Positions 2,969 through 16,525 of a stretch of 16,525 nucleotides of DNA are shown in pieces; the first letter of the stretch is position 1, and every line of letters starts with the position of its first letter. The position numbers were made by a program, and so were the translations under genes. The stretch lies in the IMG/VR virus record IMGVR_UViG_2706794662_000018, one strand, 5' to 3'. Origin of the DNA: a virus. Taxonomy: Duplodnaviria > Heunggongvirae > Uroviricota > Caudoviricetes. Under the pieces are notes generated by a model, which saw nothing but the letters and a program-made list of their open reading frames with translations, had not been told where the DNA came from and searched no databases.

Positions 2969-3002
2969 GGCATAGTACGAATGACATACTATGCCTTTTT
3001 TT
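2969..3002. terminator. bidirectional rho-independent terminator
   Basis: Perfect 9-bp stem ggcatagta (2969..2977) / tactatgcc (2987..2995) with a 9-nt loop. An A-run lies upstream and a T7 run at 2996..3002. It sits between the convergent endolysin (+) and the 3001..4029 gene (-). Confidence 0.65.
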
Positions 3003-4029
3003 ATGGTCGTTGTTTCTGCTGAAGAATTGCAATAATCCTTTCAATCTTAACATCAAGTTCATGGATTTGTGTTTCCAGTTTACTTAGTGTATCTCTCATC
3101 TTATCCTGATCATCCTCAATACGGGAAATACTACTTTCCAGTACAGCAATGGTAGTTTCAAGAGTAGCAACGCGAGTTAATAGATCATTCGTATCCTTTG
3201 TATTATCTCTAAAGATAGTATAAAGGAATACGCATCCAGAAATAACAANNNNNNNNNNNNNNNNNNNNNNNNNNNNNNNNNNNNNNNNNNNNNNNNNNNN
3301 NNNNNNNNNNNNNNNNNNNNNNNNNNNNNNNNNNNNNNNNNNNNNNNNNNNNNNNNNNNNNNNNNNNNNNNNNNNNNNNNNNNNNNNNNNNNNNNNNNNN
3401 NNNNNNNNNNNNNNNNNNNNNNNNNNNNNNNNNNNNNNNNNNNNNNNNNNNNNNNNNNNNNNNNNNNNNNNNNNNNNNNNNNNNNNNNNNNNNNNNNNNN
3501 NNNNNNNNNNNNNNNNNNNNNNNNNNNNNNNTGATATGTTCCCCGGACATTGTGACCAGCAGAACCAGGGATCAGCTACTGGAGACGTTACCGTAATGGC
3601 AGTACTGAGATCGGTAGCCGCAGGTGCTGTCAAAAATCCCCTGATACGTGGCATTGTTGCCGCTGATGCAGCAGACCAGATTAAAGTACCTTCTTCACTG
3701 AACACATCAAGAAAACCAGATGTGGGGGTAGCCGTGTGACTACTTGTCATGAACCTGCCCATGCCAGGCTGGAACATATAGGCACCAGGGAAACACCATG
3801 CCCCGTCTTTCTGTATCTGGAACCAGTACTGTGTTGTGTTCCTGTTAGCTACTACTGATGGCATAACGAAACCGAGCGATCCACCATTACCGAAGGCACA
3901 GGTAAAGCCTGTGTAGTATCCCGTATCAGTTAGATTTCCCATGGCCTTTACTGCACCCGTCATTATCGACTTGTTAGTACTATCTATAGTCAGTGCACCC
4001 GCTGAATTATATACCTCGAAACCTGCCAT
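3001..4029 (-). CDS. hypothetical tail-associated protein, paralogous at its N-terminus to the upstream 98-aa protein; continuity across the N run unverifiable
   Basis: ATG at 4029..4027, one nt after the upstream TAA. The N-terminal 166 aa are aromatic/Gly-rich. After the 283-nt N run the frame continues into a short hydrophobic segment (VISGCVFLYTIF) plus heptad-like coiled coil ending at 3001. The gap could hide a stop and a new start. Confidence 0.4.
   Translation of the reverse strand: MAGFEVYNSAGALTIDSTNKSIMTGAVKAMGNLTDTGYYTGFTCAFGNGGSLGFVMPSVVANRNTTQYWFQIQKDGAWCFPGAYMFQPGMGRFMTSSHTATPTSGFLDVFSEEGTLIWSAASAATMPRIRGFLTAPAATDLSTAITVTSPVADPWFCWSQCPGNISXXXXXXXXXXXXXXXXXXXXXXXXXXXXXXXXXXXXXXXXXXXXXXXXXXXXXXXXXXXXXXXXXXXXXXXXXXXXXXXXXXXXXXXXXXXXXXXVISGCVFLYTIFRDNTKDTNDLLTRVATLETTIAVLESSISRIEDDQDKMRDTLSKLETQIHELDVKIERIIAILQQKQRP
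3249..3531. other. run of N (masked or unsequenced), 283 nt
   Basis: Literal n characters in the sequence. Confidence 1.
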
Positions 4030-4484: not shown

Positions 4485-8210
<3,726 letters not shown>

Positions 8211-8211
<1 letters not shown>

Positions 8212-9398
8212 TACTTGTATTTCCAGTTCTGATTTTGATTAACTTGACCTAACAGACTAAAGTACTCATCATTTCTATAGTAAGATTGATATACTGAGTT
8301 GGCGGCAATTAATGCAGGTTGTCTGTCTAATTTCTTATAGACAGAATTCACATATATAGTCATTTCGTTTTGCTTCTGATTTGGATCAGTTACTGCCTGT
8401 ACATAGTCAATAAACCCCGTAAACATGAGCATTGAATCAATTACAGTACTATCATATGGATTGAGAATTACTAACTTGATATTCATCTGTGCATCTTTCA
8501 AGAAACCACCAAGGGCAAGAGCACGAACCGAGGCGTTTACATTGCTAATTTTAAAATTGATAGCATCATTAGACATGCCCTTTTGTTCAGAATATGAAGG
8601 TAATGAACCACTGATAATGTCGGGGAAACTTATGTACTTATAACCATCCAGATCTATATCAATTAGTGAATCCGTCCAGTGAAAACCATTAGTACCTTTT
8701 GGTAGTACATCAAAACAAGTAACATTAACGCCTAAGCTCATAATTTCNNNNNNNNNNNNNNNNNNNNNNNNNNNNNNNNNNNNNNNNNNNNNNNNNNNNN
8801 NNNNNNNNNNNNNNNNNNNNNNNNNNNNNNNNNNNNNNNNNNNNNNNNNNNNNNNNNNNNNNNNNNNNNNNNNNNNNNNNNNNNNNNNNNNNNNNNNNNN
8901 NNNNNNNNNNNNNNNNNNNNNNNNNNNNNNNNNNNNNNNNNNNNNNNNNNNNNNNNNNNNNNNNNNNNNNNNNNNNNNNNNNNNNNNNNNNNNNNNNNNN
9001 NNNNAAGTACTGGTACGTTCTACGATTCGATATAGCTTATTGTGATTGGAAAACTGTACCCACTCACCCACAGCTAATGTGTTAGTACTGATAGGTACAA
9101 CCATATTACCCGGTTTAGTGAGAGCAGTAGCGGTTACTGCACCAGTCTGTTTACCGTAATATGTACCTGCAAGCCCCAATGACATAGTGAAAGGTTTGCC
9201 CTGTGCATATTGAGCTAAAAAGCTATTCACTTCATTTAGTGATGCAGGATTAAAATTAAGGGTGAACTGAATTTGATAGTATTGAATTCCAGTACTTCTC
9301 ATGATACGTTGACCTGTCCATGTTTGATTAGAATAGATCGGTTCAGTACTTTTAATTTGAAAGTTCGTTACTTTTATTTGATTTGAAAAGGATGCCAT
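8211..9398 (-). CDS. minor tail protein(s), gpM-like N-terminal part and gpL-like C-terminal part; may be two genes separated inside the N run
   Basis: ATG at 9398..9396. The 131 aa before the gap loosely resemble lambda gpM; the 178 aa after it loosely resemble gpL. Position directly downstream of the tape measure gene is as in lambda. The 257-nt N run could hide a stop and restart. Confidence 0.45.
8748..9004. other. run of N (masked or unsequenced), 257 nt
   Basis: Literal n characters. Confidence 1.
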
Positions 9399-9498
9399 TT
9401 TGTTACCTCGAATATCTTCTTTCTTTATTTATTTAAAAACCTCGATTCGTATTTTTTTTAACAGGCTTGATTGGCAGGCTGCATCCGTCATCGTTGCT

Positions 9499-9972
9499 AT
9501 GTTGTTATTTGCAGGCCAAATAGGCTATAACGCATATGATAAATGGAAAGAAAGTTCAGATGATGTTTTTAAGATGCGTGTAATCTTATTGAGCGAAATC
9601 AACAATAACCTTTTAGCTCTTGCTACTGGTGGCGATGAGTCTCAGGTGTTAGGCACATATGAAATATGTATTCCTCTTCCAACTGAAGATACAGAAGCTA
9701 TTAAAAGAGTAGCAACTGCCGTTTCTTATTTGCATGATGATGTATATTATTCCCAATTAGAAAAATTAGCATCACTCCCAAAAAAAGAAGTAGATGCCAT
9801 CGTAAAGAGTTATTATTCATTATCGAGATTACGTACTCTTTCAACACAGCTTGCATACAATATTAAATACTCACCACCTAAAGTTAAATTATTGCGGGAA
9901 GAGTATTACAATCTCTATACCCTTTCATCTTCTCTTTCACAATATTTGTCTTATCACACGGAAAATCCCTAA
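9499..9972 (+). CDS. hypothetical protein encoded opposite to the tail operon (moron-like), start uncertain
   Basis: Plus-strand frame open from 9400 to TAA at 9970..9972. First ATG is at 9499; the only in-frame upstream start is TTG at 9400. The TTG start would add a hydrophobic helix (WQAASVIVAMLLFAGQIGY). No strong Shine-Dalgarno at either. It converges on the tape measure gene with a 10-bp gap and is visibly more AT-rich than its neighbours. Confidence 0.45.
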   Translation: MLLFAGQIGYNAYDKWKESSDDVFKMRVILLSEINNNLLALATGGDESQVLGTYEICIPLPTEDTEAIKRVATAVSYLHDDVYYSQLEKLASLPKKEVDAIVKSYYSLSRLRTLSTQLAYNIKYSPPKVKLLREEYYNLYTLSSSLSQYLSYHTENP

Positions 9973-9982
9973 CTGGGCTTTC

Positions 9983-12196
9983 TTATGTATTACGTTTTTG
10001 ACTACTTCTCACAGCTTGAGAAACACTATTGGCGTGTTTCTTAAGCATCTCATTAAATTTCTTGTCATCATCAGCTACATCACCCTGGATGATCAATGGT
10101 GCGTTAACGGTAATATCACCTGAAGTACTTCCACCTTCTTGTTTATCCAAGAATGCTGTTAATTTCTTATTCGCTTCAGGCTGCACCACTCTCTCGCCCT
10201 GCTTAAGTACAAATGATTTGTTGTCATAACTTGCTGGTAGTTCATCTACCCCGCCATGGAACTGACCAGCAGCAGCACCCTTTGCAGTACTAATAATCGA
10301 CATACCAAGTGAAAGTACTTGTGCATAGTTTGCCAATGAAGCTGGCCAAGGGGTAGCGAGTGCTTGGGCCAATGCTGACTGAATTGAAAGTACTGTCTGT
10401 GCAATGCTTATGCTCTTACTTAGGGTAAATGCAGCTTGTGCAGCCCCACTACTTTCCCCAAACGCATCAACCATGCCCTGTGATAGTGACTGTGCAGTAC
10501 TTGAGAAGATACTTAACTGATCCTGTGCATTCTGGTTACTGATTTGGATGGCCTGTGCATTGTACTTTGCCGTGATCTCAGCTTTACGTTTCTCATAGTC
10601 CTCATGGCCTTTCAGCAACAACTCATTCTGCTGAAGTTCAGCATTCATAGCATCAGCGTTATCTTTCAACTTCTGATCGGTATCGTTATAGGCTAATGGA
10701 TTACCACCATTGATACGCTGATTCTGTTGCTGTGCCAGATACCCCTTCTGATTGTCATTGAGTAGACCGGAACCAATAAGAGCATTGGTATCTTTCAGAC
10801 CCTGATTAGGATCTTGATAACCAACCATTGAATTCAGTAAATCAGTACGTTGTTTAGCACCATATGCAGTAGCGTTCTTTAGCATTTCATCAGGATTGAT
10901 ACCGAGTACTTGAGCACTATCGGTGATGGTTTTAAGAAGTGCCTTTTGTTGTCTGTCGAACTGCTGTAGACGTACCTGAAAACCATCTTCCCCAACTTGA
11001 GCAAGAGCAGCTTCCAGATTACGTTGAGCCTGTAGGCGTTTTGCATCTGCCGCCTTTTGTGCCGCTTCTGCCTGTTTACGTTGTTGTTCTAACTTCTTCG
11101 CTGCATCTTCAGCTTCTTTTGCCTGATCAACCCATCCGCCAGTAGGAGCGGTAGCAACCGCAACATCGGACTTTAGGTTGTTTGCCAGTTCTTCTAAACG
11201 TGCCTTAGCCTGAGCGAACTCATTACCCTTGTTGCCCTTATCATCCATGATGCCAGTATTGAGTGCTGCACCCTGGTAGTTTAATGCCCCTGCTGTACGT
11301 AATTTTTCCCAGATATCCAACATATCCTGTAGAGAACCCTTGGAAGTTTTAATACGTTCATTCAGATCTTCAAACAAACCTGCCTCGTGAGGTTTTTGAT
11401 TTGCAGCATCATAGACACTGTTCATGGCATTAACTAAAGGTGATAGGCCATCAGCAATAGTACCTTTAATGCTGGTAGTAAGTTTCCCAAGGTTTTTATC
11501 GAATTCAGCATATTTTTCAGCAGCATCATTAGTTACTTCAGCATTTTGTGACTGGATATAGGCTGTAGCTTGAGCCTCATTATTGAACTGCTGAAGAGTA
11601 CTAATCATGTGGCTTGAGTCACTGGCTAACGTTTCCATTACGTTAACTATTTCACTCTGTGATTTACCTGCATCACGCATGGCGTAAAAGGTGTGGATCA
11701 CAGCCTGCATACCACCATCAGCCTGTTTTAAGTACTTGTTATAGTCCTGTAGGTTGAGTCCATATTCTTTAAGATCATCGGATACACCACCGCCAGCACG
11801 AAAAGCATCACCGAGCTTATCCAAGGTATCCTTGTTGAAATCACCAAACTTATCAATCTCAAGACCGAGGCCACTAAACGCCGCTGATAGCTGTTGTAAC
11901 TGAACCACGGACAATCCGGTACTCTTACTGATCTGGTTCATTTCACGCACATATTCACGTGATGATTCTACTAATGCTGCCAGGCCACCAATACCAATAG
12001 CCGCAGCACCCGCGATCCCGGTCATAGCAGTACCGAACCCGCCAGCCATACCAGTTATTCGGCCTGTGAACTCTTCAACAATGCCACCAGCAGTACTACC
12101 AAATTCCTCTAATGATTCAGTACCAGACCTTAAAGCACGCTGTAAACCGGAAGAATCACCCGTAATATCTACACGTATTCTATTATTATTTGCCAT
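9983..12196 (-). CDS. tail tape measure protein
   Basis: 737-aa ORF, AGGAA Shine-Dalgarno about 9 nt upstream of the ATG. Gly-rich hydrophobic segment near the N-terminus (GMAGGFGTAMTGIAGAAAIGIGGLAAL), long A/Q/K/E-rich helical stretches, second hydrophobic region near the C-terminus. Sits immediately downstream of the G/G-T chaperone pair. Confidence 0.85.
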   Translation of the reverse strand: MANNNRIRVDITGDSSGLQRALRSGTESLEEFGSTAGGIVEEFTGRITGMAGGFGTAMTGIAGAAAIGIGGLAALVESSREYVREMNQISKSTGLSVVQLQQLSAAFSGLGLEIDKFGDFNKDTLDKLGDAFRAGGGVSDDLKEYGLNLQDYNKYLKQADGGMQAVIHTFYAMRDAGKSQSEIVNVMETLASDSSHMISTLQQFNNEAQATAYIQSQNAEVTNDAAEKYAEFDKNLGKLTTSIKGTIADGLSPLVNAMNSVYDAANQKPHEAGLFEDLNERIKTSKGSLQDMLDIWEKLRTAGALNYQGAALNTGIMDDKGNKGNEFAQAKARLEELANNLKSDVAVATAPTGGWVDQAKEAEDAAKKLEQQRKQAEAAQKAADAKRLQAQRNLEAALAQVGEDGFQVRLQQFDRQQKALLKTITDSAQVLGINPDEMLKNATAYGAKQRTDLLNSMVGYQDPNQGLKDTNALIGSGLLNDNQKGYLAQQQNQRINGGNPLAYNDTDQKLKDNADAMNAELQQNELLLKGHEDYEKRKAEITAKYNAQAIQISNQNAQDQLSIFSSTAQSLSQGMVDAFGESSGAAQAAFTLSKSISIAQTVLSIQSALAQALATPWPASLANYAQVLSLGMSIISTAKGAAAGQFHGGVDELPASYDNKSFVLKQGERVVQPEANKKLTAFLDKQEGGSTSGDITVNAPLIIQGDVADDDKKFNEMLKKHANSVSQAVRSSQKRNT

Positions 12197-12590
12197 TCTT
12201 TTTCTTTCCTAATACCTGAGATTTAATTAACTCCCCTATAGATTTAATATCATTGGATTGAGCCTCTTTAGTTTTTAATTTTCTTTCTTCAGCTTTCTCT
12301 GAAGTACTCTTAGTACTATCACTAAGCACATCAAGAAAATCAAAATCCTGTACCTTGATACTTTTCCTTGCTTCTGGTGTTAGGTTGCCATTACTGATAG
12401 TGGTGTAGTAACACTGGTACGCATGTTTCATCATTTCAATCTGCGTACCGGATGGTTCTATAAAAGTATCGTAGATCATAAGCATATTGAGTACATCAGG
12501 ATCTAAACTAAAGTATTCTTCAGGTGATAAGCCTCTTTTGTTAACCATCTTACAAAAGTACTTTAATTCGATATCACCTCTTACTTTTTT
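12186..12590 (-). CDS. tail assembly chaperone G-T frameshift extension (gpT-like part, made as a G-T fusion)
   Basis: The -1 frame relative to G is open from the slippery site through the ATG at 12548 to TAA at 12188..12186, with no stop in between. The stop overlaps the tape measure start by 11 nt. Confidence 0.55.
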   Translation of the reverse strand, partial: KKVRGDIELKYFCKMVNKRGLSPEEYFSLDPDVLNMLMIYDTFIEPSGTQIEMMKHAYQCYYTTISNGNLTPEARKSIKVQDFDFLDVLSDSTKSTSEKAEERKLKTKEAQSNDIKSIGELIKSQVLGKKKNGK

Positions 12591-12886
12591 TCTACTTCAT
12601 CTACAGGTTTCGCAGTATTGATTAAAGCAATAATTGCTGAGTAAATTTCATTCTGGATTACAAAATCAATAGAGTTAACATTAATTCGTCCATCAATATC
12701 TTCTTCTGCGAAGATAGGATCACCATTTTCATCTTTTACACATAGGATTAGAGTTTTAGCCACATCAGTGCATTTCTGGAAATCCTGACCATTTGGACGA
12801 TGAATAAAGATGATTTCACCCATTACTTCATGTGGTTTTAATTCTGGTTGTAGTTTTTTCTTCAATTCGTTTAAATTCATTTTCAT
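12581..12886 (-). CDS. tail assembly chaperone, gpG-like
   Basis: The ORF track start at 12892 is a TTG. GGAG lies at 12890..12887 and ATGs at 12886 and 12880, so the true start is probably one of those. Stop TAA at 12583..12581. Small acidic protein between the tail tube and tape measure genes. Ends in the slippery heptamer. Confidence 0.6.
   Translation of the reverse strand: MKMNLNELKKKLQPELKPHEVMGEIIFIHRPNGQDFQKCTDVAKTLILCVKDENGDPIFAEEDIDGRINVNSIDFVIQNEIYSAIIALINTAKPVDEVEKK
12584..12590 (-). other. programmed -1 ribosomal frameshift site, slippery heptamer A_AAA_AAG
   Basis: mRNA reads GTA GAA AAA AAG TAA. The heptamer A AAA AAG is in the zero frame of G immediately before its stop, identical to the E. 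coli dnaX slippery sequence. It lies at the position of the conserved G/G-T frameshift of tailed phages. Confidence 0.55.
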
Positions 12887-12892
12887 CTCCAA

Positions 12893-12921
12893 TAAAAAAG
12901 GGAAAGTTGAGCACCTTCCCT
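12893..12921 (-). terminator. intrinsic terminator or attenuator hairpin between the tail tube and chaperone genes
   Basis: On the minus-strand transcript a 6-bp stem (12921..12916 pairing with 12904..12899) with an 11-nt loop is followed directly by UUUUUAUU (12898..12893), which runs into the GGAG of the next gene. Confidence 0.4.
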
Positions 12922-12931
12922 TTATTTATTA

Positions 12932-13405
12932 TTATTCGCCCGATTCTGGTTTTGGAGTAATCAGACCTGAATCAATTGCTTCACCATCAACTGCAAGGGT
13001 GAAAGTCTTAGTTACTACTTCATCTTTATCACCACCGATAGTGGTACTTGAAACAAAGCAGGTATAAATTACAAAGAAACCTTCTTTTTTAGTTGCATCG
13101 GTAAAATAGCTTAGTTTTACCTGACAACGTTTCTGATCGTCTGCAAGTTGTTCTAAATTCTGATGTACTGCATTATCTGGTAAGTAGTTAACTGCAAGAG
13201 AAATGTCCGGGATTGACTTAGTACCCAATAGCTTACGATCATAAGCATTATTGAATGTTTTTACGCTAATTACAGTACTTTCAAAGCCTGAAGTACTGAA
13301 GGTGTTTACCTCTGGTACTTCTACAAAGTCAGTAGCAACTGTTTTACCAGCACTTGAACCTACTTCTACAGTAAGGTTAGCACCGGAAAAAATATCCATA
13401 GCCAT
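12932..13405 (-). CDS. major tail tube protein (lambda gpV-like fold, tentative)
   Basis: 157-aa ORF, ATG at 13405..13403 with AAGGA Shine-Dalgarno. Occupies the canonical position immediately upstream of the G/G-T chaperones and tape measure gene. Pattern-level resemblance to lambda gpV from memory. Clear paralogue of the N-terminal domain of the 883-aa protein. Confidence 0.6.
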   Translation of the reverse strand: MAMDIFSGANLTVEVGSSAGKTVATDFVEVPEVNTFSTSGFESTVISVKTFNNAYDRKLLGTKSIPDISLAVNYLPDNAVHQNLEQLADDQKRCQVKLSYFTDATKKEGFFVIYTCFVSSTTIGGDKDEVVTKTFTLAVDGEAIDSGLITPKPESGE

Positions 13406-13420
13406 AGTTTTATATCCTTA

Positions 13421-13455
13421 TAAGAAAATTTTATTGGAGTGAATCCGTTCACCCC
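13421..13455 (-). terminator. weak hairpin between the fibre gene and the tail tube gene (possible attenuator)
   Basis: On the minus transcript GGGGUGAA-CGGA-UUCACUCC (13455..13436) forms an 8-bp stem with one G-U pair, followed by AAUAAAAUUUUCUUA. The U tract is interrupted, so termination is doubtful. Confidence 0.25.
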
Positions 13456-13463
13456 GTTTATAT

Positions 13464-16115
13464 TTATTTATTATTTAATAGCTGTTGTACTAAATCTTTT
13501 AGCTGATTAATTTCTTCTTGTTGGGCTTGAATAGCTCCCATCAAGTCCATCACTATTGGATTTAAATCAACACGTGGATGATCACGAGTGACAATCTCCC
13601 CTTCTATTTCAACTGTTTCTTCATCATGCTTAATGTACTGCGGAGCAGTCAACTCAGCATCTTCGGCGATAACACCAAACCTAACCCTTTCTTGTTCATC
13701 ATCCTTGTAGATAAACGTTACTAAATCTTGTGACATTATCCGATCTAATGCTTCAACTGGATTTGCTGGAGTTATGTCTCTTTTAAACTCACGACCTGAT
13801 GTACCTTGAGCTTGCATTACTAACCATCCAAACCATGTTGTACCGTTCCCGCCTCGTACTCTTAAAGTACCACCACCGTCTATCTGAAGCTGAGAGCGAT
13901 TTGCCCCTGGGTGTCTTTGCATGTGCAATAAAGGGGAATATTTTTCACTATAGTTAATACCTGAGTCACCTGGCCCTGCATACATACCGTTAAAGGTGAT
14001 GGTATTGGCATCTGTCGGTCCCGAAACAGCGGTATTAGTCATCCATCCTGATTGAACATCAGTTAGGATCGTTCCAGTCGGCCCTTTTAGCCCCCATAGT
14101 TTATCCTCTGCACCATTTTCAGAAATAAAAAGGGTGAGATCAGCCTGTCCAGTCTGTCCCATCGTTTTACCAACCCGAAAACCACCAGATATTTCAGTTG
14201 ATGTACCAATGTTGCATATCGAACGAATACGCCCTCCAGTTACATAACTACCAATTGCCGTAGAGGAAGGGGAAGAAGCAATAACATCCCATTGAGGACT
14301 AACTGAAGTACGACTACTCAGCAAGTTTTCAACCCAGCGTTTGGTAGTCGCGTCAGAATCAGAGACAGGATCTCCTGCTAAAGAAGTTGCACCCGTAGGA
14401 CGAATCGCAGGCCATAACTCAGCCTGAGTCTTAACACCAGTACCGCCCTGCGGAATTGCTAATGCTTTCCAGCCAGTGAAAGCACCCGCAATATATGTAG
14501 CTGAACCCCATTGCCCTCCATCATAAACCACTAATGCAGCGGAAGAATCAGCGGATTTAATAGTTGTTAAATTACTACCTTGATTAAAGCGATCCACCTG
14601 AAAGTTTAGGCGAGCACTCAAAGCATCTGTAGCCCCTGTCCCCCCCTGACCTATACCTAAAGCAATCCATCCAGTACCAGTACTTGCACCCCATGCCCCG
14701 TTATCCTGAATTCGGATACGGTTAGTCAGGTCATTACTCATCAGATCGGTGTACGTAGCACCCTGAGTCAAACGGTTCACCTGTAGGTTAGTACGTGCTG
14801 TAGAGAGACTGGATAGATCAGAAAGGTTACTCGCTTTCTTCATGGAAGCGGAATCAAGGGAAGTAATACTGTCAGCTAAAGCCGTTACCTCTGCATCTAC
14901 TTCATCCATTGAGTAAACAGCAAGGTTAATACGTGCTTCTTCCACGTCCCCCAGATCACTTAGATTACCTGCTATCGTAAGCTGGGCATCATCTGTAACC
15001 TTCCCTAAGCCAACATCAGTACTGGTAAGTACTACATCCTCACTGAGTACATGACCGTTGACCATACGTGTATCAGGTACTGAACCTGTATCTTCACTAC
15101 TCAGTACTACATTTTCACTAAGTACATGACCGTTCACTGTACGCGTGTCAGGTACTGAACCTGTATCTTCACTACTCAGTACTATATCTTCACTGAGTAC
15201 ATGACCATTAACTGTCCGTGTATCTGGTACAGAGCCGGTATCAGTACTGGTAAGTACTACATCCTCACTTAGAGGCTTACCATTCACAGTACGTGTATCA
15301 GGTACTGAACCTGTATCTTCACTGTTCAGTACTAAATTGGCCGTGAGTGCATGGCCGTTGATGGTACGTGTAAGGGGTACGTATCGCCCGTCCATCTGTG
15401 TAGCGGTATATATGCGTGTCCAGGCGGTTGTAGCGTTCTTTGCATAGATACTTAGAGTACCCGTCTTTGTCATCGCAAGAGAACTTACAGTAGTGCCATC
15501 TACAAGCCCTACTCCCATCAGATCCGCCCCGGCAGGATTGCCTGCTTGAGATGATGGTACTTTGATGAAGCTGTTACCCGTAGGTACTGATGGTGAGTAC
15601 TGAGGTACATCCGTAGTGTTCGAACCTAAACCGTAGTCCCCCTGATAGATTGGCGATAGTGCGTTAATGGTCATTGCACGTGCGATCACATCATGTGGGG
15701 CAAAACTGTATGCCTTGGTTACTACTGAACCTTTATCACCGTCCAACTTATAAGAGGTGATATAACCATTCACCATCGCATAAGTAATGGTATTTTCATC
15801 CTTATTCATCTGGTACTGAATGATGATCTGGAAAAGCTGCTGAGACTTAGCGGCATTATCCAAGAATTGATGTGTAGGATCATCAGGTAGGTAGTTAACT
15901 ACAATATCAAATGGTGCTACTGATTTATCAGATAGTAGTACTGTCCTGTAATCACTATCATACGTTTCAAAATTATTTGCTTCTGAATTTATTGTTAAGG
16001 TTGGAAAAGTATTAATCTGTTTAATTACTACATTGCCTGCTCCCTGTGGTGTTCTGTTACCAATATCAGCATTATACTGTACTGATAATTCTCTTCCTGA
16101 GAAAATATCACTCAT
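13464..16115 (-). CDS. tail fibre protein with N-terminal tail-tube-like domain, five 25-aa tandem repeats and C-terminal intramolecular chaperone (peptidase S74-like) domain
   Basis: 883-aa ORF. Residues 1-145 align with the 157-aa tube protein (MSDIFSG/MAMDIFSG, NTF, VNYLPDD/VNYLPDN, GDKGSVVTK/GDKDEVVTK). Middle has fibre motifs (NLSDL ... ARTNL). The C-terminal 111 aa (SGREFKRDITPANPVEALDRI ... LVTFIYKDD ... RFGVIAEDAELTAP) match the autoproteolytic chaperone domain of endosialidase and T5 L-shaped fibres, with Ser and Lys 5 residues apart. Confidence 0.8.
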   Translation of the reverse strand: MSDIFSGRELSVQYNADIGNRTPQGAGNVVIKQINTFPTLTINSEANNFETYDSDYRTVLLSDKSVAPFDIVVNYLPDDPTHQFLDNAAKSQQLFQIIIQYQMNKDENTITYAMVNGYITSYKLDGDKGSVVTKAYSFAPHDVIARAMTINALSPIYQGDYGLGSNTTDVPQYSPSVPTGNSFIKVPSSQAGNPAGADLMGVGLVDGTTVSSLAMTKTGTLSIYAKNATTAWTRIYTATQMDGRYVPLTRTINGHALTANLVLNSEDTGSVPDTRTVNGKPLSEDVVLTSTDTGSVPDTRTVNGHVLSEDIVLSSEDTGSVPDTRTVNGHVLSENVVLSSEDTGSVPDTRMVNGHVLSEDVVLTSTDVGLGKVTDDAQLTIAGNLSDLGDVEEARINLAVYSMDEVDAEVTALADSITSLDSASMKKASNLSDLSSLSTARTNLQVNRLTQGATYTDLMSNDLTNRIRIQDNGAWGASTGTGWIALGIGQGGTGATDALSARLNFQVDRFNQGSNLTTIKSADSSAALVVYDGGQWGSATYIAGAFTGWKALAIPQGGTGVKTQAELWPAIRPTGATSLAGDPVSDSDATTKRWVENLLSSRTSVSPQWDVIASSPSSTAIGSYVTGGRIRSICNIGTSTEISGGFRVGKTMGQTGQADLTLFISENGAEDKLWGLKGPTGTILTDVQSGWMTNTAVSGPTDANTITFNGMYAGPGDSGINYSEKYSPLLHMQRHPGANRSQLQIDGGGTLRVRGGNGTTWFGWLVMQAQGTSGREFKRDITPANPVEALDRIMSQDLVTFIYKDDEQERVRFGVIAEDAELTAPQYIKHDEETVEIEGEIVTRDHPRVDLNPIVMDLMGAIQAQQEEINQLKDLVQQLLNNK
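14997..15371 (-). repeat. five tandem 75-bp (25-aa) repeats inside the fibre gene
   Basis: Protein repeat TRTVNGHVLSEDVVLSSEDTGSVPD occurs 5 times with a few substitutions each. The DNA units are near-identical (for example gtatcaggtactgaacctgtatcttcactactcagtactacat recurs at about 15070, 15146 and 15296). Confidence 0.85.
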
Positions 16116-16132
16116 CCTTTATATCCTTTTAG

Positions 16133-16525
16133 TTATCTTGTCTTTTCCGTAACTTGAATATTTATCGTAAAGGATAGGGAAACCGAGCCAGTTATAGGAT
16201 CTGTGACAATATCGGATTGTTCATAAGAACACGAAAGCATTATTAAACCTGCATCACTGAATGCTGAAGTTTTCTCTTTATCAAAAGTACTAATAATCTG
16301 ATCATAAGTGATGGATGGGGCTGTATTACCTGATTCTGGTTTAGGGGAAATCAGATACTGAATTGCAAAGTTACCTGCCCGGCGTTCATTGCTGAAACTT
16401 AAACTCGTTAATGAGTAATCAAAAGCAATTTGTTCAAATACATCAACATCACGTGATACTGTCAGATTCTTAGTAGCATTGATAAGCTGCTTCATCGTAT
16501 TCCGTACTTTTTGTACTAACATCAT
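16133..16525 (-). CDS. tail terminator protein candidate (lambda gpU-like by size, position and weak pattern)
   Basis: 130-aa ORF with ATGATG at the window edge (16525..16520), so it is probably complete. Upstream of the fibre and tube genes, and the same size as lambda gpU (131 aa). Pattern-level resemblance only (RDVDVFEQIAFDYSL vs gpU RPAVFDEADFPAVAVYL, from memory). Confidence 0.4.
   Translation of the reverse strand: MMLVQKVRNTMKQLINATKNLTVSRDVDVFEQIAFDYSLTSLSFSNERRAGNFAIQYLISPKPESGNTAPSITYDQIISTFDKEKTSAFSDAGLIMLSCSYEQSDIVTDPITGSVSLSFTINIQVTEKTR

Follow-up and report, generated by a model that had tools for sequence, protein, structure and literature searches.

Side fibres set a phage's adsorption speed and host range. 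To our knowledge, T5-like phages and lambda are the only cases in which the attachment of side fibres to a flexible tail has been solved, and both use external 12-mer collars. T5 divides the job over three proteins, a ring of p140, a 12-mer collar of p132 and the fibre pb1, and the p140 ring is a dedicated fibre-bearing ring made of a tube-protein paralogue (PMC10038345). The side fibre protein Stf of Ur-lambda is trimeric, with three ring-forming N-terminal domains on flexible linkers, and 12 copies make up four fibres (PMC12617516). Tube proteins may themselves be decorated: lambda gpV, T5 pb6, YSD1_22 and SPP1 gp17.1* consist of a tube domain with an outward-projecting extension at the C-terminus, believed to aid adsorption, and SPP1 has forms with and without the extension (PMC8718954). 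Here we describe an 883-amino-acid (aa) protein encoded on a 16,525-nucleotide (nt) stretch of tailed-phage DNA (IMG/VR record IMGVR_UViG_2706794662_000018), the whole of which is called the window below. Very probably, this protein is a paralogue of the tube fold fused to a fibre that is matured by an S74 domain, with the adjacent 157-aa protein as the tube. We favour the reading that it serves as an accessory lateral tail fibre, for host recognition, of a temperate siphovirus.

The tail genes of the window are all on the minus strand. The two genes under study and the parts of the fusion are located as follows.

13464–16115, minus strand: gene for the 883-aa tube-domain/fibre fusion, stop codon included (list of open reading frames (ORFs) and translation, ATG start)
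15681–16115, minus strand: residues 1–145 of the fusion, predicted tail-tube-fold domain, paralogue of the adjacent tube protein
15366–15680, minus strand: residues 146–250, family-specific connector, with a linker at 146–179 and a small beta domain at about 180–237
15028–15372, minus strand: tandem 75-nt (25-aa) fibre repeats (Tandem Repeats Finder and motif positions)
13467–13799, minus strand: residues 773–883, S74 intramolecular chaperone domain, with predicted cleavage at Ser773 and with Lys778
12932–13405, minus strand: gene for the 157-aa major tail tube protein (Pfam Phage_tail_3, phrog_158, gene position)

The initial annotation had proposed that the fusion's N-terminal domain is a paralogue of the neighbouring 157-aa protein, and the comparison of the two proteins bore this out. 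In BLASTP, residues 3–139 of the 883-aa protein aligned with residues 4–138 of the 157-aa protein with 31% identity, 51% positives and 2 gaps (E=3e-19), which covers the entire 157-aa protein except its C-terminal tail. Judged from this alignment, the similarity is far above chance. Both proteins also matched phrog_158, 'major tail protein', the fusion with E=1.3e-16 and the 157-aa protein with E=5.8e-19. An AlphaFold2 model of residues 1–250, based on a 71-sequence alignment, reached a mean predicted local distance difference test (pLDDT) score of 73.5; the low confidence was found mostly in loop 41–60 and in the linker, with a pLDDT of about 50 at residues 160–180. Residues 1–145 are modelled with a tube fold, consisting of a beta-sandwich with a flanking helix and a long flexible beta2-beta3 loop. 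The protein has a single 145-residue tube domain with no duplication, and no Ig-like (immunoglobulin-like) or FN3 domain of the lambda gpV type follows directly after it.

Conserved across both paralogue families were an N-terminal M..I..G and the motif T-[YF]-x(3)-Y-x(3)-L at residues 51–60, the latter falling within the low-confidence stretch 41–60 of the model. Both families are acidic, with mean net charges of -12 and -8 over 145 residues. The sequence comparisons show that the N-terminal 145 residues of the fusion go back to an old duplication of the phage's own major tail tube protein and have since diverged. The same Shine-Dalgarno-like stretch, AAGGATATAAA, precedes the ATG of the fusion gene (16116–16135) and that of the tube gene (13406–13425), both on the minus strand, which suggests that the ancestral duplication included the translation-initiation region. 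An 8-base-pair hairpin, GGGGTGAA-CGGA-TTCACTCC, is also present between the two genes.

The rest of the protein agreed with its earlier description as a repeat-bearing fibre that ends in an S74 domain. Five 25-aa units '(T)RTVNGHVLSEDVVLSSEDTGSVPD' were found at residues ~253–377, and Tandem Repeats Finder reported a period of 75 nt with 4.1 copies and 80% matches at 15028–15334. Matches to tail-fibre PHROGs extended over residues 244–879, with E-values down to 1.8e-37. The Pfam S74 model (PF13884) matched residues 774–822 with 34.1 bits against a cut-off of 22, and residues 768–878 aligned to the C-terminal end of 8hqz_d, a solved chain of the L-shaped tail fibre of DT57C (E=6.5e-34). The segment 'QGTSGREFK', which contains Ser773 and Lys778, pairs with 'QGTSGIEYK' of DT57C LtfA and places a Ser-x4-Lys pair at the N-terminal edge of the domain. 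We take Ser773 and Lys778 to be the catalytic pair, given the Ser-x4-Lys spacing of the self-cleaving chaperone domains of endosialidase and T5 pb1. LtfA thus shares the S74 C-terminus (111 residues) and TSGxxxK with the fusion, but has no tube-fold N-terminus, and it is attached via the collar protein LtfC (PMC12617516).

Several observations support the earlier assignment of the 157-aa protein as the tube. The protein matched Pfam Phage_tail_3 (PF08813) with 34 bits against a cut-off of 24.2, and three further Pfam tail-tube models below their cut-offs. Its gene is located immediately upstream of the two chaperone genes and the tape-measure gene, which is the canonical slot of a tube gene. 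Among the related loci, which we denote by L and a number, three from Pectobacterium prophages (L009–L011) carry the same module without the fusion: right after a 147-aa neck gene comes a 151-aa tube-protein homologue (53% identity), the sole tube-fold gene found at this position. Because of the Pfam match, the slot and these fusion-less relatives, the 157-aa protein is identified from sequence as the real tube and the 883-aa protein as an add-on. The names given to related proteins agree with this: a copy identical to the 157-aa protein (P0131, on 353 contigs) is called 'phage tail tube protein [Shigella sonnei]' at NCBI, and the annotation of major tail protein is given to a distant homologue in the same slot of Vibrio phage V6Aob.

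The initial annotation had left room for the alternative that both proteins share a fibre-attachment fold and that the true tube is encoded elsewhere. The 157-aa protein does show a low level of divergence from textbook tube proteins, and a phmmer search with it against the PDB sequences gave no match to a solved structure, so that a comparison of folds was needed instead; nothing else speaks for the alternative. In L002, L003 and L006–L008, the stretch from the capsid gene to the tail tip contained no second tube candidate, and the Pectobacterium loci have this gene alone at that position. The tube fold is indicated for both proteins, for the 157-aa protein by the Phage_tail_3 match and for the fusion's N-terminal domain by the AlphaFold2 model. 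With the canonical slot and the two annotations against it as well, we reject this alternative, as far as sequence analysis goes, as hardly credible.

An exhaustive phmmer search with residues 1–250 was run against 1.84 billion representative proteins. The clusters (at 50% identity) with E<=1e-3 numbered 141, and in 98 of these E was <=1e-30; almost all had a length of 700–1560 aa and matched at their own residues 1–250. The homologue search proposed in the initial annotation therefore places the fusion in a large conserved family and not as an oddity of the window. Members with a named source were found in E. coli, Enterobacter, Klebsiella, Citrobacter, Salmonella, Erwinia, Kosakonia, Cedecea, Leclercia, Yersinia, Serratia, Edwardsiella, Rouxiella and Pantoea, and they bear no labels other than 'tail fiber (domain-containing) protein' and 'pyocin knob domain-containing S74 family peptidase'. 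All 120 listed homologues start with the tube-like domain (30–100% identity), and the connector (residues 150–250) is 42–100% identical to that of the window in all but one. The exception, P0125, is a 219-aa fragment that keeps the first 16 residues of the connector. Close relatives are alike over residues 1 to ~560 and divergent beyond, and a constant virion-attachment part with an exchangeable receptor-binding tip is the usual pattern of fibres. From these alignments, the first 250 residues appear as a constant module, with the distal part swapped between relatives.

The long reading frame might instead come from a decaying prophage or an artefact, as a chance or degenerate fusion with no function. 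Several homologues are fragmented or truncated (L004, L005, L020, L021) and the window itself contains masked runs of N. However, the reading frame is intact, the Ser/Lys motif is kept, and the full-length architecture is preserved from 100% down to about 25% identity over many genera, which makes this explanation very improbable. The short forms that comprise the tube and connector domains only (P0121–P0129, P0304 and P0326) were all contig-end truncations, frameshifted assemblies or pseudogenes, and we therefore dismissed the idea of a free-standing decorated tube protein. In the metagenomic locus L005, a -1 frame change right after the connector (at ~8700–8810) separates a 240-aa protein with the tube and connector domains from a 1049-aa fibre with an S74 domain. 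Across the junction the downstream frame stays open and carries on with the expected sequence 'YNLNGLPKTGGTLTGG', and no obvious slippery heptamer was seen there; the split could reflect an error of sequencing, a pseudogene or else a programmed frameshift giving short and long forms like SPP1 gp17.1 and gp17.1*.

A protein 100% identical to the fusion is present in Shigella sonnei (P0001). The presence of proteins identical to both the fusion and the tube protein in Shigella sonnei assemblies shows that this is the tail module of a temperate siphovirus of Enterobacteriaceae. No near-identical DNA to positions 12900–16525 was found in the phage, E. coli complete-genome and plasmid collections; the element carrying the fusion is known only from draft assemblies and metagenomes. 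The order of neck gene, fusion and tube gene was observed in 14 of 17 related loci; a scan of a genome collection with a close alignment gave seven loci.

When the N-terminal 255 residues were searched by tblastn in 50,697 phage genomes, the sole isolated phage found with the fusion was DCP80, a phage of E. coli. Its 698-aa protein comprises the tube-like domain and the connector (25% identity), and the gene is followed by a second, 745-aa fibre-like gene (10899–13136) and a 164-aa tube protein that is 40% identical to the 157-aa protein of the window. A search with the N-terminus of the DCP80 protein itself gave no additional phage, and DCP80 was mentioned in no paper in our literature search. 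Since DCP80 is more distant than the Pectobacterium prophages and has the fusion, the duplication is old and the Pectobacterium state is most simply explained by loss. The absence of the fusion from Pectobacterium relatives with otherwise the same gene order also indicates that it is dispensable for tail assembly. The DCP80 record (L001; PQ671644.1, 1–18530) is labelled Straboviridae/Tevenvirinae/Gaprivervirus. Its module is of the siphovirus type, with a protease-capsid fusion, a tube protein, chaperones and a tape measure, and the structural genes all carry the name 'hypothetical protein'; either the taxonomy label seems to be mistaken or this is an unusual record.

For the function of the fusion, we propose the following mechanism. 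The S74 domain would drive the trimerization of the shaft and then cleave itself off at Ser773. The mature trimer would bear three tube-fold domains on flexible linkers of ~35 residues, and a hexameric ring of the tail tube would draw its six subunits from two such trimers, giving two fibres per ring. The fibre would be anchored as part of the tube wall and not via an adaptor or a collar protein, and the connector (residues 146–250), whose linker 146–179 is conserved yet flexible, would bridge the six-fold ring to the three-fold shaft. If T5 p140 and the collar of Ur-lambda Stf are taken as analogues, the ring would most likely be distal, beside the distal tail protein. One could also conceive of a mixed ring; in phage Nocturne116, two distal tail proteins form a 3+3 hetero-hexameric ring (PMC13595954).

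In solved tubes, the N-terminus and the long beta2-beta3 loop become ordered on assembly and make ring-ring contacts (PMC10038345, PMC8718954). The conservation of these elements in both paralogue families favours incorporation into the tube wall, as does the acidic charge of both families. The C-terminal decorations of the lambda, T5, YSD1 and SPP1 tube proteins all project outwards (PMC8718954), and a fibre that follows residue 145 would accordingly be expected to point away from the tube. The T5 p140 ring and the tethered N-terminal domains of Ur-lambda Stf are precedents that point in the same direction.

Several findings weigh against this mechanism. Residues 1–145 gave no match to a Pfam tail-tube model at E<=0.1 and none in NCBIfam, and the confidence of the AlphaFold2 model is moderate. 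The mean pairwise identity is 46% for the tube domain of the fusion versus 66% for the major tube protein; with its faster evolution and the missing Pfam match, the former may have lost some of the tube contacts. The connector domain has no recognizable fold, so the role given to it is a guess. Two three-fold fibres on a six-fold ring would leave the ring with two-fold symmetry only, for which we found no described precedent in tails. A tandem duplicate would land beside the tube gene anyway, and the gene order, with the fusion next after the presumed terminator gene, is therefore no guide to the place of the ring. A co-variation of the fusion's tube domain with the neck protein, sought in order to locate the ring, was not seen, in that identities across the loci did not run parallel. 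We infer the incorporation into the tube wall, the stoichiometry and the ring position purely from the genes and a single-chain model. On balance, we lean narrowly towards the mechanism as a whole, incorporation of the fusion into the tube wall included.

Two other arrangements have to be considered. In one, the domain would not line the DNA channel but serve as a peripheral adaptor, either docked to the exterior of the tail (at the distal tail protein, tube or neck) or forming a wider collar. The tube fold would then be re-used purely as a binding module, like the N-terminal domains of Ur-lambda Stf or T5 p132. The conserved ring-contact elements favour the tube wall instead, and we regard the peripheral arrangement as rather unlikely.

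In the other, the fusion would co-polymerize with the 157-aa protein along the tube, as SPP1 gp17.1* does with gp17.1, and the tail would resemble a bottle brush. Mixed tubes of this kind exist in SPP1 (PMC8718954), the polymerization elements are conserved in the fusion, and with the same AAGGATATAAA motif on both genes the fusion is not obviously translated less. Trimerization, however, would need three neighbouring subunits, and with rings spaced about 4 nm from one another, there would be little room for a long trimeric shaft on each successive ring. Moreover, the functional analogues in lambda and T5 have three or four fibres at one level, and the faster evolution of the fusion's tube domain fits fewer contacts, not the same contacts. 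We consider the bottle-brush tail distinctly improbable.

Like T5 p140, the tube-like domain belongs to a tube-protein paralogue that is separate from the major tube protein. It differs in that p140 is a double tube domain forming trimers, whereas the 883-aa protein has one domain covalently fused to the fibre, and no separate collar gene was found among the neck, fusion and tube genes of the examined loci. The tube-initiator paralogues of contractile tails, T4 gp48 and gp54 and PVC Pvc5, are essential assembly initiators that carry no fibres, unlike the apparently dispensable fusion.

Stf of Ur-lambda matures with separate Tfa-type assembly proteins and not through an S74 domain. The fusion resembles Stf in being a side fibre with its own N-terminal domain, and Stf is dispensable and speeds adsorption; the Stf domain (94 residues), however, forms an external 12-mer collar at the gpV/gpM junction and is not described as a tube paralogue (PMC12617516). 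The decorated tube proteins share with the fusion the design of a tube domain followed by a C-terminal extension. In those proteins, the extension is a single ~90-residue Ig-like or FN3 domain on the major tube protein itself, whereas in the fusion it is predicted to be a ~740-residue trimeric, protease-matured fibre on a separate paralogue. The T5 p140/p132/pb1 system and the Ur-lambda Stf collar are nearest in function, and the Ig/FN3-decorated tube proteins are nearest in design. A full-text literature search, with subscription journals mostly outside its coverage, yielded no description of a fusion between a tube protein and a fibre, and a 2021 review of major tail proteins described none (PMC8718954).

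The remaining features of the window are the following.

16133–16525, minus strand: 130-aa gene of an unknown family, presumed neck or tail-terminator protein (role from position alone)
12897–12923, minus strand: terminator-like hairpin with an 11-bp stem and a T run, directly after the tube gene (consensus scan)
12581–12892, minus strand: tail assembly chaperone of 103 aa, first of the pair (phrog_344, E=1.6e-6)
12186–12548, minus strand: second small chaperone-type gene
9983–12196, minus strand: tape measure protein of 737 aa (phrog_13674, E=5.4e-86)
8211–9398, minus strand: 395-aa ORF, by position taken to be the distal tail protein (masked in part; no family match)
7807–8211, minus strand: DUF6950 protein
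4485–7814, minus strand: 1109-aa ORF, tail-tip protein (position; counterparts in related loci carry Phage_Tail_Tip)
2042–2476: SegE-like GIY-YIG endonuclease (Pfam, 60.7 bits), downstream of the tail-tip ORF among further small genes
downstream of the tail-tip ORF, plus strand: lysozyme

The hairpin after the tube gene is consistent with a higher expression of the genes upstream of it. The 103-aa chaperone also gave 24 bits with the Pfam model Phage_TAC_13, under the cut-off of 28.8. Runs of N, seen as X in the translations, mask parts of three tail genes, the ORFs at 3001–4029, 4485–7814 (about 6990–7310) and 8211–9398, and this masking is probably the reason why the 395-aa ORF has no Pfam match. 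The position of the 130-aa gene, always ahead of the fusion, is conserved in L002, L003, L004, L006–L008 and L012–L016, and neither its product nor a 10-sequence profile of it gave a match in Pfam, PHROGs, NCBIfam or the PDB. The plus strand has at 9400–9972 a 190-aa ORF that starts with TTG and has no family match, between the tape-measure gene and the presumed distal-tail gene. ORFs on the opposite strand occupy the same slot in L002 (16240–16713) and in L009 and L010 (10444–11037), and the slot may be a moron-type insertion site.

Further observations were made in the related loci. In the metagenomic phage of L003, the major tube gene (12711–13465) is split exactly between '...FNSAYNR' and 'KLLGTKS...' by a group I intron at 12872–13125, which matches the whole length of the Rfam model RF00028 with 88.7 bits (gathering score 50). 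The tube gene of the window has no intron, and the SegE-like GIY-YIG endonuclease gene is present in L003 and in the window alike. Two small genes (about 90–107 aa and 130–147 aa) alone separate the protease-capsid fusion from the tail genes in L002 (7461–9985), L003 (7325–9991) and L006 (1931–4439), an unusually small head-tail connector set. One small head-tail gene weakly matches the lambda FII-type family Phage_attach in L005.

If the proposed mechanism is correct, a hexameric ring within the tube that bears two trimeric, protease-matured fibres would be a third and previously undescribed way to anchor side fibres, with no adaptor; we put the chances of this as even. That the mismatch between the six-fold and the three-fold symmetry is resolved within one polypeptide, via the connector at residues 146–250, is part of the same reading and in our view evenly poised between true and false. 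The structural question it raises is how a six-fold ring can feed two three-fold shafts, and a chaperone-matured trimeric fibre on a tube subunit would be unexpected for phage structural biologists. The fibre as a tube subunit would represent a simpler and engineerable form of anchoring, in which residues 1–250 act as a constant plug for a swappable tip, and could be useful for the retargeting of phages or F-type tailocins. Members of the family occur commonly in the prophages of Shigella, E. coli, Enterobacter, Klebsiella, Citrobacter, Salmonella and Serratia, where the present annotation 'tail fiber domain-containing protein' overlooks the tube domain. The fusion would then provide a natural case of a tube-protein duplicate that has gained a new role.

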